Part shown: positions 1,918 through 24,254 of the stretch, one piece after another
Layout: every line of letters starts with the position of its first letter
How positions within the stretch are numbered: position 1 is the first letter of the stretch
NCBI GenBank assembly: GCA_034667245.1
Contig: JAXDKI010000106.1
Coordinates: 1 to 49,572, forward strand
Reading direction: 5' to 3'
Length of the DNA stretch: 49,572 bases
From: Thermomicrobiales bacterium
GTDB lineage: Bacteria; Chloroflexota; Chloroflexia; Thermomicrobiales; UBA6265
The notes under the pieces: generated by a model
Told to the model about the DNA's origin: nothing
Database searches by the model: none
The model's input: only the letters and a program-made list of their open reading frames with translations
Made by a program: the position numbers and the translations under genes

Positions 1918-2537
1918 GTCTCAGCGTCCTCGGTGAGACCAAATAGGGCCAATAGGGAGGGCAAGGCCGTTTGGCAAGCCCTTGCTCGGTGACTCTTCGC
2001 GTTCTTCTCGTCCGGCAGGAGTTGCGCCATCGTTCGACCATCGGGAAACACGAACAGGGGGTCGTAGCCGAAACCGTGCTCGCCGGACGGACTGAACGCA
2101 ATCGAGCCTTCACAAACTCCTTCCGACTCTACCTCCTGCCCGTCCGGTGTCGCAACCACCAGAACGCAGCGGAACCTGGCGCCCCTTTGGGCAAAGGGTA
2201 CACCCGTCAGCGCGGCCAGGAGCTTCTCTCGGTTGGCCCGGTCGTCTCCGCCTTCGCCGGCATACCGTGCCGAATGAAGACCGGGAGCACCGCCCAGGGC
2301 GTCCACTTCGAGGCCCGAGTCATCGGCCAGCGCGATCAGACCCGACTGGCGTGCGGCTGCCCGTGCCTTCAACCGAGCATTCTCGGCGAATGTGGTTCCC
2401 GTCTCAGGCGGAGACTCAAGTCCGACGTCCGTCAGCGACAGCAGCTCCAACGGACGAGGCAGCAGCGCTCTGAACTCCTTCAGCTTGCCGCGGTTGCCGG
2501 TCGCGACGAGCAGTCGCGGTCGTGCTCCTGTGCTCAT
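1914..2537 (-). CDS. rdgB: RdgB/HAM1 non-canonical purine NTP pyrophosphatase
   Basis: ATGNRGKLKE, ENARLKA, ADDSGLEVDAL, GFGYDPLF and KSHR motifs. Confidence 0.96.
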   Translation of the reverse strand: MSTGARPRLLVATGNRGKLKEFRALLPRPLELLSLTDVGLESPPETGTTFAENARLKARAAARQSGLIALADDSGLEVDALGGAPGLHSARYAGEGGDDRANREKLLAALTGVPFAQRGARFRCVLVVATPDGQEVESEGVCEGSIAFSPSGEHGFGYDPLFVFPDGRTMAQLLPDEKNAKSHRARACQTALPSLLALFGLTEDAET

Positions 2538-3364
2538 CGAGTTGACTCCGCCGGCTTTGCCTCTTCCATCCCGACGGACAATCCGAACACGCGGCGAGCA
2601 TTTTCAGTCGTCGCGTTCGCGACATCGTCGAGCGTAACCGACTTTAGCGAAGCGAGGGTGGCGGCGATCGCCGGGATGTTGACGGGAGAATTGCGGCGAT
2701 CCTTGATCCCCGCCGGGGTCAGATACGGGGCATCAGTTTCCAGCAGCAGGCGGTCCATTGGGAGGTTCCGAACGATCTCGCGGAGCCGGGCATTCGATTC
2801 GCGGGTGACCAGGCCACCGACGCCGAAGAAGAATCCCCGGCCGAGGGCGTATTCGGCCAGCTCTTCGGAGCCGTCGAAGCTGTGCAACACGGCGATCAGG
2901 TGGTCGCCGATGCGGTCGAGCTCAGATCGGAGATCTTCCTCGACCTCTCCGCGCATGTGGATCACAACGGGCAGGCGACACTGTGTCGCGAGGTCGAGTT
3001 GGGTCGCGAAGGCGCGGCGCTGGGAGTCCCGGTCGGACAAGTCGCGAAAGTAATCGAGCCCGATCTCTCCGAGCGCGACTGGGCGATGCTTCTCGATCGT
3101 CGCAGCGAGGTCCGCGAGCAAGCTGGCACTGAATTCGTCGGCGTGATGCGGATGCAGACCGAGCGTGAATGAAACGTCGTGGCGACGCTCGGCCAGGGCG
3201 ATTGACGTCCGCCAGCGATGCGGGCGGTAACCGATGTTGACGACATGCCGGACACCGACATTCGTCGCCGCGGCCAGGATGGCGTCAAGGTCGCCCTCGA
3301 AGCGCCCATCGTCAAGATGGGCATGCGTATCGACGAAGGTCGGTGTGTCGTTGCCTGAGATCAC
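2534..3364 (-). CDS. tatD: TatD family hydrolase/DNase
   Basis: DTHAHLD, GLHPH, GEIGLDY, IHMR, HSF and LETDAPYL motifs. GTG start at 3364 overlaps the glmS stop (GTGA). Confidence 0.94.
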   Translation of the reverse strand: MISGNDTPTFVDTHAHLDDGRFEGDLDAILAAATNVGVRHVVNIGYRPHRWRTSIALAERRHDVSFTLGLHPHHADEFSASLLADLAATIEKHRPVALGEIGLDYFRDLSDRDSQRRAFATQLDLATQCRLPVVIHMRGEVEEDLRSELDRIGDHLIAVLHSFDGSEELAEYALGRGFFFGVGGLVTRESNARLREIVRNLPMDRLLLETDAPYLTPAGIKDRRNSPVNIPAIAATLASLKSVTLDDVANATTENARRVFGLSVGMEEAKPAESTR

Positions 3365-5130
3365 TTCACCGTTACGCTCTTCGCGAGGTTGCGCGGTTTG
3401 TCCGGGTCGTTCCCGCGCAACAACGCCGCGTGGTAGCCGAGCATTTGGGCCGGCAACGCTTGAACCAGCGGTGCGGCCTCGCCCACGTCCGGTGTCGGCA
3501 GATGGACATCGAAGACCGGATCGCAGGTTGGGCCGATGCCGATAATGTAGCCGCCGCGGCTCTTCAACTCCATCGCCCCTGACAGGATGTCGGCGCGGGT
3601 CTCGTCGTTCGGTGCGTAGACGACGCACGGGGTGCCGGGAGCGATCAGAGCGATGACGCCGTGCTTCAGCTCGCCGCCCGCGAAGCCTTCCGCATGAATA
3701 TAGCTGACTTCCTTGATCTTGAGCGCGGCTTCGAGGGCGGTTGGGTAGGACAGACCACGCCCGATGATGTAGAGATGGTCGGCACGATGGACCTGTCGAG
3801 CAACCTCTCTGATGCGACCGAGCCACGGTTCGGCAAGCATCCAGCGCAGCGCATCGGCCGCGAGGAGGACTTGCTCACGGCCCCGTTCGTAGTTGCCCGT
3901 CAATGCGTGCGCGGTCAGCAGCAGCGTCGCCACCTTGGCCGTGTACGCCTTGGTTGAGAGCACGCACTGCTCCGGCCCGGCGCCGAGATGGACGCGCAGA
4001 TCCACCATGCGGTCAAGCGTCGACCGGGGCACGTTGACGAGCGCACCGAGCCGCGAACCCCGCTTTCGCGCGGCGAGCATCGCCTCGATCACGTCGGCGG
4101 TTTCGCCGCTTTGCGAGAGCGCGACCACGAGGCTGCGCGGAGTCAGAAAGTGCTCGTGGTATTTGAACTCCGAACCGACGACGAAGTTGACGTGGCGCGA
4201 CGCGACGCGGCTGAAGAGATACGAGCCGGTCAATGCCGCGTATGATGCCGTTCCACAGCCCATCAAAAACGTTCCGTACGACTCCTGGATCGCGTCCGCG
4301 AGCGCAAGAATCTGATCTTTGCCGTCGTTGGCCAGCCGCTCCAGGACAGCCGGTTGCTCCGCCATCTCCTTCGACATGAAGTGCGGGTGCTCGCCGAGCT
4401 CCACGTCGCGCGATTCCAGGTCCATGTCCACGAAGTCGCCGTCGATCTCCTGCATCGTCCGCCTGTCGTAGACCGTGATGCCGGAGTGGCCGAGGCGAAC
4501 CAGGTGATGGTCCTCCAGGTAGAGGATGCGATCGGCGTGACCCCGCAGGGCCAGCGCGTCGGAGGCGATTGAGGTTCCCGCCGGTCCGATGCCGACGACG
4601 AGCGGCGACACGCTCTTGGCGGCGATCAGCGAGCGCGATCCCAAGTCGAGCACGATGATCGCGCTCAAACCCTCCAGGCGCGAAAAGACCGCGGCGAGCG
4701 CCGCGGTGACGTCCGTCGTCCCGCCGGCGACCTCTTCCTCGAGGAGATGGGCGATCACCTCCGTATCGGTTTCGGATTGAAACTCGTGACCGCGTGCGAG
4801 AAGTCCGTCGCGGAGTTCTCGGAAGTTCTCGACGATGCCGTTGTGGATGATCGCCAGGCGTCCAGTGCAGTCCAGATGGGGATGGGCGTTCGCCTGCGTG
4901 ACGCCGCCGTGCGTGGCCCAACGCGTGTGTCCGAACCCGATGTCGGACGCGGGAAAGTCGACCGTTGCATTGGCGATCTTGCCGGGACGCTTCTCGACGC
5001 CGATGTGTCCGTTGACGCCGATGGCCACACCCCAGGAATCGTAGCCGCGGTATTCGAGGGTCTTGAGGGCATTGAGGACGGCGCCGCCGACCTCCATCTG
5101 CTCACCGACGTAGCCGAAGATTCCGCACAT
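3361..5130 (-). CDS. glmS: Glutamine--fructose-6-phosphate aminotransferase
   Basis: N-terminal MCGIFG, LEYRGYDS, GHTRWATHG, SQSGETAD, and C-terminal PRNLAKSVTVK. SD GGGAGG lies upstream of ATG 5130. Confidence 0.98.
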   Translation of the reverse strand: MCGIFGYVGEQMEVGGAVLNALKTLEYRGYDSWGVAIGVNGHIGVEKRPGKIANATVDFPASDIGFGHTRWATHGGVTQANAHPHLDCTGRLAIIHNGIVENFRELRDGLLARGHEFQSETDTEVIAHLLEEEVAGGTTDVTAALAAVFSRLEGLSAIIVLDLGSRSLIAAKSVSPLVVGIGPAGTSIASDALALRGHADRILYLEDHHLVRLGHSGITVYDRRTMQEIDGDFVDMDLESRDVELGEHPHFMSKEMAEQPAVLERLANDGKDQILALADAIQESYGTFLMGCGTASYAALTGSYLFSRVASRHVNFVVGSEFKYHEHFLTPRSLVVALSQSGETADVIEAMLAARKRGSRLGALVNVPRSTLDRMVDLRVHLGAGPEQCVLSTKAYTAKVATLLLTAHALTGNYERGREQVLLAADALRWMLAEPWLGRIREVARQVHRADHLYIIGRGLSYPTALEAALKIKEVSYIHAEGFAGGELKHGVIALIAPGTPCVVYAPNDETRADILSGAMELKSRGGYIIGIGPTCDPVFDVHLPTPDVGEAAPLVQALPAQMLGYHAALLRGNDPDKPRNLAKSVTVK

Positions 5131-5300
5131 ACTCGTAACCAACCTCCCGTGAACGCGCCAGCGCTCGTCCCTGTCTCTGCGACGGGGCCGGCGGCGCATA
5201 CGGTATGAATGCCCTGATGGCTGCCTGAACGACAGCCTGGGCATCTCGGGTACCTACCGATAGGATGGCACGGGAGGGGACATTTGGGGGGTGTGGTGAT

Positions 5301-5446
5301 GGCACTTAAGTCGGGTTTTGTACACCGGTTGCCCGGTTCTTTTGTCCCGACGTTGACGACCGTGCCGGCCGGGGAGCCATCCGCCGAAGGGTTCGATCGG
5401 CTCCCACCTCGTCAACTCGCAGCCTCCGCGCGAGTCCTGGCGCTAC
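5301..5446 (-). ncRNA. glmS glucosamine-6-phosphate-activated ribozyme
   Basis: Minus strand reads AGCGCCAG-GACUCGC..GCGAGUU-GACGAGG-UGGGAGCC-GAUCGAA..UUCGGCGGAUG-GCUCCC-CGGCC(GGCAC)GGUCG..GUCGGG-ACAAAA-GAACCGG GCAA CCGGU-GUACAAAA-CCCGAC-UUAA-GUGCC. This contains the core motifs, P1-P4 and the P3.1 pseudoknot (GGCAC/GUGCC), and lies upstream of glmS. Cleavage is expected between 5444 and 5443. Confidence 0.95.
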
Positions 5447-5606
5447 GTGCGTGATAAAGACGTTGACTCCACCCCTGATTTCGCGTCCTCATGCCCAGTG
5501 TGATCCGCGCTCAGTGTAGTCGTCGGTCTGCCTCAGCGCAATGCGATGCCGTATACTCGGCGTGGACCAAGGGTGTCCGTTCATTCGCTCGGAAGGGACT
5601 TCAGAC

Positions 5607-6947
5607 GTGATTGGTCGCTACACCAGACCCGAAATGGGTGCGGTCTGGAGCGACGAACGGAAGATCGATGCCTGGCTGGCGGTTGAGAAGGCGGTCTGCG
5701 AAGCCTGGTACCGGCGGGGCCGCATTCCTGACTGGGCGATGCCGGCGATCCGCGCCGCCACCTGCGACCTCGATCGCATGCGCGAGATCGAGCAGGAAAC
5801 CGACCACGACGTCATCGCCTTCCTCCGCGCCGTCGGTGAGACCGCTGGCGATGCCGCTCGATTTATCCACCTCGGCCTGACCAGCTCCGACATCGTCGAC
5901 ACCGGACTCGCGCTTCAGGTCAGCCAGTCTGGAGAATTGCTGACAGCCGGGCTTGCCCGACTCGTCGACGTGGTCGGCGCTCAGGCCGTTCGACACAAGC
6001 ACACCGTCATGATCGGTCGGACGCACGGCGTCCATGCAGAACCGACGACGTTCGGTCTCAAGCTGGCCGTCTGGTTCGACGAGTTGCGCCGGCACGAGCG
6101 GCGGCTCGCACTCGCATGCGAGGACATGGCGGTCGGAAAACTCTCCGGCGCGGTCGGCACGCATGCCCACGTCCCGTTGGGCCTTGAAGACGAGGTCTGC
6201 GCCGACCTAGGACTTCGCCCCGCCCCGGCCTCGACCCAGATCGTCCAGCGCGACCGGCACGCCTTCTTCCTCTCGGTCCTGGCCGGGATCGGCGGGACCC
6301 TGGAAAAGATCACGACCGAGATTCGGATGCTCCAGCGCACCGAAGTTCGGGAAGCGGAGGAGCCGTTCCCAGCCGGGAATCAGGGTTCGTCGGCAATGCC
6401 GCATAAGCGAAATCCCCACGCGTCGGAGCGCGTCGCCGGCTTGGCGCGCTTGCTGCGGGGCTATGCGGTCACCGCCCAGGAAAACGTGGCACTCTGGCAC
6501 GAGCGCGACATCAGCCACAGCTCGGCCGAGCGCGTGATCTTCCCGGACGCCTGCATCCTGACCGACTATCTGCTCGACCTCGTCACCGAACTCGTCGAAC
6601 ACCTCGTCGTCTACGAGGATCGGATGCGAGCGAACGTCGACCTCACCGGCGGGCTCGTCTTCTCACAGCGCGTCCTGCTCGCGCTCGTCGATGCCGGGAT
6701 GGATCGGCAGCGCGCCTACAAGCTCGTTCAGCGGCACGCGATGGACGCCTGGGATCGCGGAACGTCGTTCAAGGAGACGCTCGGCTCGGATCCTGAGGTG
6801 AATCGCCTTCTGGAACCGTCGCTCTTCGAATCGCTGTTCGATCCGCAGGAACAGCTGGTAAACGTTGATGAGATCTTTGCTCGACTGGGTCTCGGCAACG
6901 ATGTCGGGTCGGTCGAGTCGCGGTTCGCGGAGGCGGTCCTGGCGTGA
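5607..6947 (+). CDS. purB: Adenylosuccinate lyase
   Basis: HDVIAF, HLGLTSSD, GRTHGVHAEPTT and GSSAMPHKRNP motifs. GTG start at 5607 inferred. Confidence 0.97.
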   Translation: MIGRYTRPEMGAVWSDERKIDAWLAVEKAVCEAWYRRGRIPDWAMPAIRAATCDLDRMREIEQETDHDVIAFLRAVGETAGDAARFIHLGLTSSDIVDTGLALQVSQSGELLTAGLARLVDVVGAQAVRHKHTVMIGRTHGVHAEPTTFGLKLAVWFDELRRHERRLALACEDMAVGKLSGAVGTHAHVPLGLEDEVCADLGLRPAPASTQIVQRDRHAFFLSVLAGIGGTLEKITTEIRMLQRTEVREAEEPFPAGNQGSSAMPHKRNPHASERVAGLARLLRGYAVTAQENVALWHERDISHSSAERVIFPDACILTDYLLDLVTELVEHLVVYEDRMRANVDLTGGLVFSQRVLLALVDAGMDRQRAYKLVQRHAMDAWDRGTSFKETLGSDPEVNRLLEPSLFESLFDPQEQLVNVDEIFARLGLGNDVGSVESRFAEAVLA

Positions 6948-21598: not shown

Positions 21599-21673
21599 TG
21601 GTAGGCCCGGCAGGATTCGAACCTGCGACCCTGGGGTTATGAGCCCCGTGCTCTGCCACTGAGCTACAGGCCC
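21599..21673 (-). tRNA. tRNA with CAT anticodon, probably tRNA-Ile2 (lysidine-modified)
   Basis: GGGCCTGTAGCTCAGTGGCAGAGC-ACGGGG CTCATAA CCCC-AGGGTC-GCAGGTTCGAATCCTGC-CGGGCCTA CCA. It has an Ile-like acceptor stem (C4, C5), lacks the initiator C1 mismatch, and encodes CCA. Confidence 0.93.
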
Positions 21674-24086: not shown

Positions 24087-24159
24087 AGCGGGGGACGGGA
24101 CTCGAACCCGCGACAGCCTGCTTGGAAGGCAGGTACTCTACCAACTGAGTTACCCCCGC
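24087..24159 (-). tRNA. tRNA-Gly(TCC)
   Basis: GCGGGGGTAACTCAGTTGGTAGAGT-ACCTGC CTTCCAA GCAGG...GGTTCGAGTCC...CCCCCGCT; CCA not encoded. Confidence 0.96.
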
Positions 24160-24181: not shown

Positions 24182-24254
24182 TCGGGGTGAGAGGACTCGA
24201 ACCTCCGACCTCAGCGTCCCAAACGCCGCGCGCTACCGACTGCGCCACACCCCG
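24182..24254 (-). tRNA. tRNA-Pro(TGG)
   Basis: CGGGGTGTGGCGCAGTCGGTAGCGC-GCGGCG TTTGGGA CGCTG...GGTTCGAGTCC...CACCCCGA; CCA not encoded. Confidence 0.96.

Follow-up and report, generated by a model that had tools for sequence, protein, structure and literature searches.

In the window, by which we mean the whole 49,572-nucleotide stretch of DNA analysed here by computation (a contig of a Thermomicrobiales bacterium, JAXDKI010000106.1), the glmS ribozyme is followed by a long spacer whose C-rich beginning is complementary both to the SD sequence of glmS and to a G-rich leader upstream of the ribozyme cleavage site. Across genera of the family this tract covaries with the SD region of its own mRNA and with its own 5' leader, and the two pairings partly overlap on the tract. 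We propose that the three strands may constitute a translational platform, attached to the glmS ribozyme and actuated by its cleavage, a reading to which we give a probability of about 0.4. Among riboswitches, the glmS ribozyme is the usual example of one that lacks an expression platform. If our reading is true, a metabolite-triggered RNA cut would be converted directly into masking of a ribosome-binding site, and a whole bacterial order would couple the glmS cut to translation too.

The features of the locus are collected in Table 1. The ribozyme sits in the 5' untranslated region of glmS and matches the full covariance model (1-167) without truncation. Its distance from the start codon is 167 nt, close to the 170 nt or so given by the first-pass annotation of this DNA. 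The GlmS protein has the N-terminus MCGIFG, which all its relatives have too, a GATase domain and two SIS domains. An in-frame ATG at 5244 was considered as another start of glmS and rejected, as every relative begins at MCG; the spacer limits follow from the start at ATG 5130. A strict sigma-70 scan found no consensus promoter. Judged from the position of the -10-like hexamer TACACT, transcription would start near 5506 and the excised leader would be about 62 nt long. Hexamers of the form TAN[AG][ACG]T occur in 88 of 105 upstream windows as against 27% of shuffles, and start 40-82 nt before the cut. A leader peptide was considered and rejected, for no start codon follows the SD-like 5' element at a usable distance. 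Rho (637 bits) and RNase Y are encoded in the genome. RNase J is encoded in two copies, so the textbook RNase J route is available here.

Table 1. Features of the glmS locus in the window (coordinates of the window; features on the minus strand are read from the higher to the lower position)
Feature	Position	Strand	Remarks
glmS coding sequence (glutamine-fructose-6-phosphate aminotransferase)	3361..5130	minus	start ATG 5130-5128
Spacer, ribozyme end to glmS start codon	5297-5131	minus	167 nt
SD partner CACGGGAGG	5143..5151	minus	SD core GGGAGG 5148-5143, 12 nt before start codon
Variable structured insert inside the putative mask	5155..5244	minus	hairpins 5244-5209 and 5197-5155 in the minimum-energy fold
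Post-ribozyme tract	5248..5297	minus	spacer positions 1-50; C-rich, G-poor over first 40 nt
Anti-SD CCUCCCGUG	5269..5277	minus	spacer positions 21-29
glmS ribozyme RF00234	5455-5298	minus	84.1 bits vs gathering score 37, E 5.4e-18
Native P3.1 3' strand GUGCC	5305-5301	minus	direct reading
P3 loop GGCACGG of ribozyme	5366-5360	minus	direct reading
Ribozyme cleavage site	between 5444 and 5443	minus	
5' leader removed by self-cleavage	5444..5506	minus	G-rich, SD-like GGGGUGGAG (5475-5467) and CACUGGGCAUGAGGACG (5500-5484)
-10-like hexamer TACACT	5513..5518	minus	putative transcription start near 5506
Adenylosuccinate lyase gene	5541-6947	plus	divergent neighbour of glmS

The first-pass annotation had claimed that the 9-mer at 5277-5269 is complementary to the SD-bearing segment at 5151-5143. 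Direct reading bears this out: CCUCCCGUG and CACGGGAGG are perfect reverse complements and form 9 bp. The octamer GUGCCAUC is present twice, at 5305-5298 and 5271-5264, and its second copy overlaps the anti-SD; this copy, the P3 loop and the P3.1 strand all lie where the annotation had put them. The minimum-energy fold of the spacer includes the 9-bp helix. Its predicted energy of -72.6 kcal/mol (z -1.96) was equalled by 6 of 200 shuffles and would by itself be only mildly unusual. In the predicted ensemble the nine anti-SD:SD pairs have probabilities of 0.56-0.86, and the 9-mer duplex was computed at -17.0 kcal/mol. Helices of this length are uncommon by chance: a perfect Watson-Crick helix of at least 9 bp between the SD window and the upstream spacer arose in 0.6% of 5000 dinucleotide shuffles of the whole spacer, and an SD helix of at least 9 bp arose in 1.5% of shuffles when the C-rich first 50 nt alone were shuffled. 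The annotation had drawn this helix as closing a domain with inner hairpins. It does enclose the two hairpins of Table 1, but the CCUA-UCGG-UAGG hairpin that the annotation named is absent from the fold. A scan of the spacer against Rfam, a check of the kind that the annotation had suggested, yielded no family match and two noise hits (E 0.29 and 2.4).

Strain-level contigs from soil metagenomes depart from the window at four places (5216, 5217, 5296 and 5447), none of them inside the 9-bp helix. Those at 5216 and 5217 fall within an interior loop of the first hairpin. The variant at 5296, at position 2 of the tract, is a C to U change in the RNA and would retain a G-U pair with the leader, and that at 5447 lies 4 nt before the cut. 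These variants appear compatible with the structure, at a number of changes too small for a test. No reads from the one RNA run examined were placed on this region, and the contigs do not show RNA ends.

For comparison among relatives, 106 leaders from 38 genera were extracted from the end of the ribozyme to a verified MCG start; two further loci ran off their contigs. The ribozyme was present in 36 of 41 relatives, with the window's genome counted in, and 94 of the family's 108 genomes carry it. One near-duplicate leader (L003) was left out of most counts, which leaves 105 leaders, or 104 where the upstream flank was required. Two unpublished genomes (G007 and G011) contributed one leader each to the pooled tests, and the key tests were repeated without both, so that none of the conclusions depends on these two. 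The sole other genome of the window's genus, 96% complete, gave no DNA match to the leader, which makes a comparison within the genus impossible for the window. A metagenome scan for closer relatives gave a best match of 60% identity over 300 N-terminal residues, none closer than those of the genome set.

Spacers in the 105 leaders (Thermomicrobiales, Chloroflexota) are 79-319 nt long, with a median of 152, and their middle part is not alignable between genera. Their beginnings share a composition. In 30 leaders the first 40 nt of the spacer had C of 0.39-0.42 and G of 0.17-0.21, and later positions had 0.33 of each. Pentamers resembling an anti-SD reach a density of 3.64 per 100 nt over the first 50 nt versus 0.90 over the remaining spacer (105 leaders), and the tract carries them in 73 of the 105 leaders and 33 of the 38 genera.

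Two tests of tract:SD pairing were negative or uninformative. Comparing RNAduplex energies of the SD window and the whole upstream spacer with those of dinucleotide shuffles gave p<0.05 in 3 of 30 leaders (Fisher 0.36); because loops of any size were allowed, the null in this design is too strong. With 29 leaders, a first comparison of own with foreign tract:SD pairs was negative (p 0.19-0.31). For 12 leaders of one genus RNAalifold showed no long-range helix, a result that is uninformative because MAFFT left the helix strands unaligned. The later measure was stricter and used all leaders, taking the best contiguous helix that overlaps the SD core. By this measure 61 of 106 leaders have the partner in the first fifth of their spacer. 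Of the 106 helices, 59 have 7 bp or more, 35 have 8 bp or more and 17 have 9 bp or more.

Covariation was then measured by scoring each tract against its own SD window and against those of other genera, with one leader per genus and permutation. The window's genus was left out because the case was found there. In the remaining 37 genera the tract prefers its own SD window with a median permutation p of 0.009-0.013. The value was 0.003 in the 28 genera with leaders of at least 130 nt, and again 0.003 when the window and both unpublished genomes were left out. Three control pairs were null: spacer positions 51-100 against the SD (p 0.41), the tract against the coding sequence (0.68) and the tract against spacer positions -50 to -32 (0.60). 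The claim of an SD-masking helix 3' of the ribozyme thus gains from relatives, where p for own versus other-genus partners is about 0.003-0.013 with all three control regions null, and the helix looks real. Within one genus the flanks of the helix differ between species and still match, as in CUCCUCUGG:CCAGAGGAG and UCCUCCGG:CUGGAGGA, with UCCUCUUG:CAAGGGGA and CCUCCACGG:UCGUGGAGG as further pairs. The consensus fold computed from the spacers of one genus pairs GCUCC with GGAGC, that is, tract with SD. The signal is uneven, being strong in some genera; many others lack an extended SD helix, among them a genus with 14 leaders. Taken together, the comparison provides moderate evidence that the SD mask is probably real across relatives, though not universal. 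We rate the evidence as moderate because the positive result came after two negative designs.

The signal between the 5' leader and the tract, a pairing that the first-pass annotation had not noted, is stronger than that between the tract and the SD. At 15-45 nt before the cut, leaders of the family carry G-rich elements that often look like an SD and are complementary to the tract. In several genera, with the start placed from the -10-like hexamers, these elements would lie 4-10 nt from the 5' end. Own leader:tract pairs scored 19.2 versus 16.7 for pairs from other genera (p 0.0001-0.0006; 104 leaders, 36-37 genera). The signal was seen first on 29 leaders, and p was 0.0001 without the window and the unpublished genomes. 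The controls of the leader against spacer positions 51-100 (p 0.57) and against the coding sequence (p 0.38) were null; that of the 37-nt distal leader (-82 to -46) against the tract was borderline (p 0.05). RNAduplex energies gave the same picture, with -33.1 kcal/mol for own versus -28.5 for foreign pairs (p 8e-5). The signal rests on Watson-Crick pairs, and it holds up better with G-U than with A-C pairing, which is what RNA of the glmS strand should show. In the genus whose spacer-only consensus pairs the tract with the SD, an RNAalifold consensus built from full-length leaders has instead a leader:tract helix that brackets the ribozyme, with covarying flanks. All eight leaders of one genus have a GGAGCGAUC-like leader element, a GAUCGCUCCA-like tract and the SD UGGAGCG, again with covarying flanks. 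The leader also resembles the SD window of its own mRNA, the longest common word averaging 5.22 versus 4.78 (p about 0.01). In one leader both the leader element and the SD context are GGGAGAGG, and in the window the element CACUGGGCAUGAGG resembles the SD context CACGGGAGG with two insertions.

The window's own leader offers GGGGUG (5475-5470), which pairs with the tract segment CACCCC (5293-5288). For leader with tract, RNAduplex gave -30.5 kcal/mol and adds GGACG:UGUCC, CAC.GGG:CCCGUG and GGAU:AUCC, of which the CAC.GGG:CCCGUG pairing covers part of the anti-SD. Measured against foreign leaders, the window's leader duplex was no stronger (-27.7 vs -28.5).

Competition between the two pairings was assessed by position and by an equilibrium partition-function model in which the ribozyme was held in its own fold. 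In 47 of 104 leaders, at least 3 nt of the tract belong to both the best leader:tract helix and the best tract:SD helix. The overlap per genus is 0.37 versus about 0.21 for intervals taken from different genera, with a median permutation p of 0.021 that ranged from below 0.001 to 0.245. In the model, the probability of SD core:tract pairing falls from 0.48 when there is no leader to 0.37 when the leader is foreign and 0.27 when it is the own one; of the two leader values the own is the lower in 30 of 37 genera (p 0.0002). Across leaders, the SD was predicted to be unpaired at 0.305 before and 0.267 after cleavage, a difference short of significance (p 0.07), and coverage of the anti-SD was the same with the own leader (0.57) and with a foreign G-rich leader (0.56). 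For the window the model predicted SD:tract pairing of 0.78 before and 0.86 after cleavage, with the SD unpaired at 0.12 in both states, and the contiguous leader helix (tract positions 5-10) lies clear of the anti-SD (21-29). Folding the window under constraints, before and after cleavage, gave unstable structures in which the leader paired to coding sequence; these were not relied on.

From these pairings we infer an order of events, a release of the leader and an effect on translation. The platform would have three strands: a 5' leader, G-rich and SD-like, that precedes the cut; the C-rich anti-SD tract just 3' of the ribozyme; and the real SD 80-300 nt beyond the tract. Leader and tract would pair first because they are transcribed first, and would bracket the ribozyme; the SD that emerges later would then be free and glmS would be translated. 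Once GlcN6P triggers self-cleavage, the leader would be held by base pairs alone and could be displaced by the cis-acting SD region or degraded by nucleases. The tract would then re-pair in cis with the SD, ribosome loading would stop, and the masked message without ribosomes would leave the 5'-OH product open to RNase J decay. Several observations argue against this scheme. The leader:tract duplexes, predicted at -28 to -39 kcal/mol, would not dissociate unaided after the cut. The predicted accessibility of the SD barely changes with cleavage, and the own leader covers the anti-SD no better than a foreign G-rich leader does. In the window the helices do not overlap, the leader duplex is not better than foreign ones and the SD is masked in both states. 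Many genera lack an extended SD helix, the transcription starts are putative, and the tract:SD result followed changes of design after two negative tests. With still more reserve than for the platform itself, we suggest that in Thermomicrobiales and at least one other Chloroflexota family self-cleavage may sever a decoy SD, the leader, from an anti-SD and so mask the ribosome-binding site.

The absence of overlap in the window and the nearly constant SD pairing predicted there (0.78 and 0.86, with 0.12 unpaired in both states) are what one would expect if the anti-SD:SD helix formed whether or not the transcript is cut and set a low level of ribosome loading, the leader:tract helix being a separate matter. 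Such a standing mask would let RNase J overtake ribosomes on cut transcripts: an excerpt of a published account (PMC10810187) describes RNase J1 decay as competing with ribosomes, which hinder it at the SD, so slow ribosome loading would aid decay. We consider this reading rather unlikely. It leaves unexplained the likeness of the leader to the SD window, the sharing of tract positions above chance, and why the own leader outcompetes the SD better than foreign leaders do. GlmS is essential in most bacteria, and a 9-bp G+C-rich mask therefore needs a way to open. Somewhat less probable again is that the leader:tract helix is the functional one, a 5'-terminal stem that would shield uncut mRNA from decay dependent on the 5' end and insulate the folding of the ribozyme, with the tract:SD complementarity incidental. 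The leader:tract covariation is indeed the strongest signal we have, leader elements lie within a few nt of the putative 5' end in several genera, and 5' stems and SD-like 5' elements stabilise mRNAs in Bacillus. A pure side effect, though, would yield generic CCUCC:GGAGG matches alone, and the tract:SD complementarity reaches into non-SD flanks that differ between genera and is specific to the leader's own SD window.

The first-pass annotation had named another partner for the anti-SD: CCGUGCC (5273-5267) was to rival the tail GUGCC for the P3 loop, such that a native ribozyme would exclude an exposed SD. The SD-masking helix of that proposal is supported, but the P3 loop as competing partner is not: across the family, tract complementarity to the loop was not enriched (p<0.05 in 4 of 82 leaders, Fisher p 0.86; the loop pattern was missed in 23 leaders). 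The 7-nt complement to the loop is present in the window. It is limited to the window's genus and two neighbouring genera, where 4 of 5 leaders keep it at spacer positions 25-27, and in one leader CUGUGCC faces a changed loop, GGCACAG, which makes a compensatory pair. In these five leaders the block pairs with the 5' leader as well; in one genus that helix, GGCACGUUGG with UCAACGUGCC, has 10 bp. Since the same five P3.1 pairs can form with the second copy of GUGCCAUC, this copy need not inactivate the ribozyme. As far as excerpts of two papers go, the ribozyme is transcribed and can fold and cut while the tract is still to be made (PMC10810187), and the pocket that binds its ligand is preformed (PMC2258182). 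We regard competition for the P3 loop as improbable, and as the weaker explanation even for the window's small clade. If there is a switch at all, the cut is more likely to set it than ribozyme folding is, because the 5' leader covaries with the tract far more strongly. Slightly less probable still is a Rho loading (rut) site in the tract whose exposure would end transcription before glmS is completed; the composition of the first 40 nt and the presence of Rho are in keeping with it. A rut site is C-rich, G-poor, unstructured and roughly 70-80 nt long. Here the bias spans about 40 nt and the stretch pairs. The tract also covaries with two partners, something that composition by itself would not call for, and CU-only anti-SD pentamers are four times enriched in it. 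Functionless chance complementarity in a G+C-rich leader fits the z of -1.96 and the first two comparative tests, both negative, but is hard to credit beside a 9-bp helix met in 0.6-1.5% of shuffles, the position bias, covariation across 35-37 genera and the null controls.

The canonical glmS ribozyme of B. subtilis, the system to which Collins et al. 2007 reportedly refers, belongs to the same ribozyme family and lies at the same place before glmS. There, GlcN6P-dependent self-cleavage is followed by RNase J1 decay of the 5'-OH product. The leaders described here differ in their long spacer with a covarying anti-SD tract and in the covarying 5' leader partner. As in translational riboswitches, an anti-SD pairs with the SD and has a competing partner. 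In those, however, the ligand refolds an aptamer, whereas here the ribozyme is folded beforehand and the proposed trigger would be the irreversible loss of the covalent link. An mRNA with a likewise long-range, UCCCC-type anti-SD is icaR of Staphylococcus aureus, in which a UCCCC motif of the 3' UTR reportedly pairs with the SD of the mRNA's own 5' UTR with the involvement of RNase III; it differs in that a ribozyme is absent, the motif lies in the 3' UTR and works with RNase III. Excerpts of PMC2258182 and PMC10810187 describe the canonical glmS system as having no expression platform, and the former sets glmS ribozymes apart from the other classes on the ground that those do use one. In an excerpt of Felletti et al. 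2016 (PMC5052635), engineered hammerhead and twister switches carry SD and anti-SD in a ribozyme stem. There too self-cleavage changes the strand that holds the ribosome site. According to the same excerpt these switches are artificial and mostly free the SD, turning translation on, whereas the system proposed here would be natural and of opposite polarity, the cut freeing the anti-SD. Our literature search, which did not take in the two surveys likeliest to mention one (McCown et al. 2011 and 2012), turned up no account of glmS ribozymes with an SD mask or 5' clamp. If the proposed platform is true, it would be a natural case of cleavage-actuated control of a ribosome site, a kind otherwise known to us from engineered switches, and it would explain 80-300 nt of otherwise unexplained spacer.

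The own-versus-foreign comparison was also run by the same method on an outgroup of 23 leaders from 18 genera of other Chloroflexota families. It gave p 0.62 and 0.50 there, a null used as a negative control and not as proof of absence. One of these outgroup families shares the design: 4 of its 5 leaders carry AGGGGA about 17 nt before the cut and UCCCCU in the tract at positions 8-18.

The minus strand carries an ATG at 5244 that shares the reading frame of glmS; the interval 5244-5131 is free of stops, and a mechanical ORF call from this codon gives a 627-aa product. This start was ruled out. The sequence MCG forms the N-terminus of GlmS in all relatives, and the N-terminal Cys is the catalytic residue; on these grounds the true start of glmS is 5130. 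The SD core lies 12 nt from this start codon, and in most leaders of the window's family the gap is often 12-14 nt, which exceeds the usual optimum.

The arrangement of a G-rich leader upstream of the ribozyme cleavage site, a C-rich tract carrying the anti-SD at the start of the spacer, and the SD also occurs beyond Thermomicrobiales. In another Chloroflexota family, it was seen in four of five glmS leaders (L350, L354, L355 and L357). These four contain AGGGGA about 17 nt 5' of the cut, UCCCCU within spacer positions 8-18, and GGGG within the SD.

Hairpins were also observed in single genera. A genus with 14 leaders (e.g. L115, L119, L125 and L139) has a covarying hairpin of the GCCGG-loop-CCGGC type in the last 40 nt of the spacer. 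Located 5-6 nt upstream of the SD, it replaces the extended tract:SD helix and is a different solution at the same position. A small conserved GGGC-loop-GCCC hairpin occupies spacer positions 1-13 in a genus with 12 leaders (e.g. L113, L120, L128 and L138), immediately 3' of the ribozyme and 5' of the conserved UCCUC anti-SD motif. One genome of the window's family, G100, has two glmS ribozyme-glmS loci on separate contigs with similar leaders, an arrangement that could reflect duplication or contamination.

The TatD-family ORF, as listed, overlaps the 3' end of glmS. Its Pfam domain begins only at residue 165, so the gene probably starts near 3340, immediately downstream of glmS.

Other genes in the window
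Feature	Position	Strand	Evidence
TatD-family hydrolase ORF	2534-3826	minus	listed as 430 aa from GTG 3826; Pfam domain
tRNA gene	21602-21673	minus	Rfam tRNA, 66-71 bits (range over three genes)
tRNA gene	24087-24159	minus	Rfam tRNA, 66-71 bits (range over three genes)
tRNA gene	24182-24254	minus	Rfam tRNA, 66-71 bits (range over three genes)
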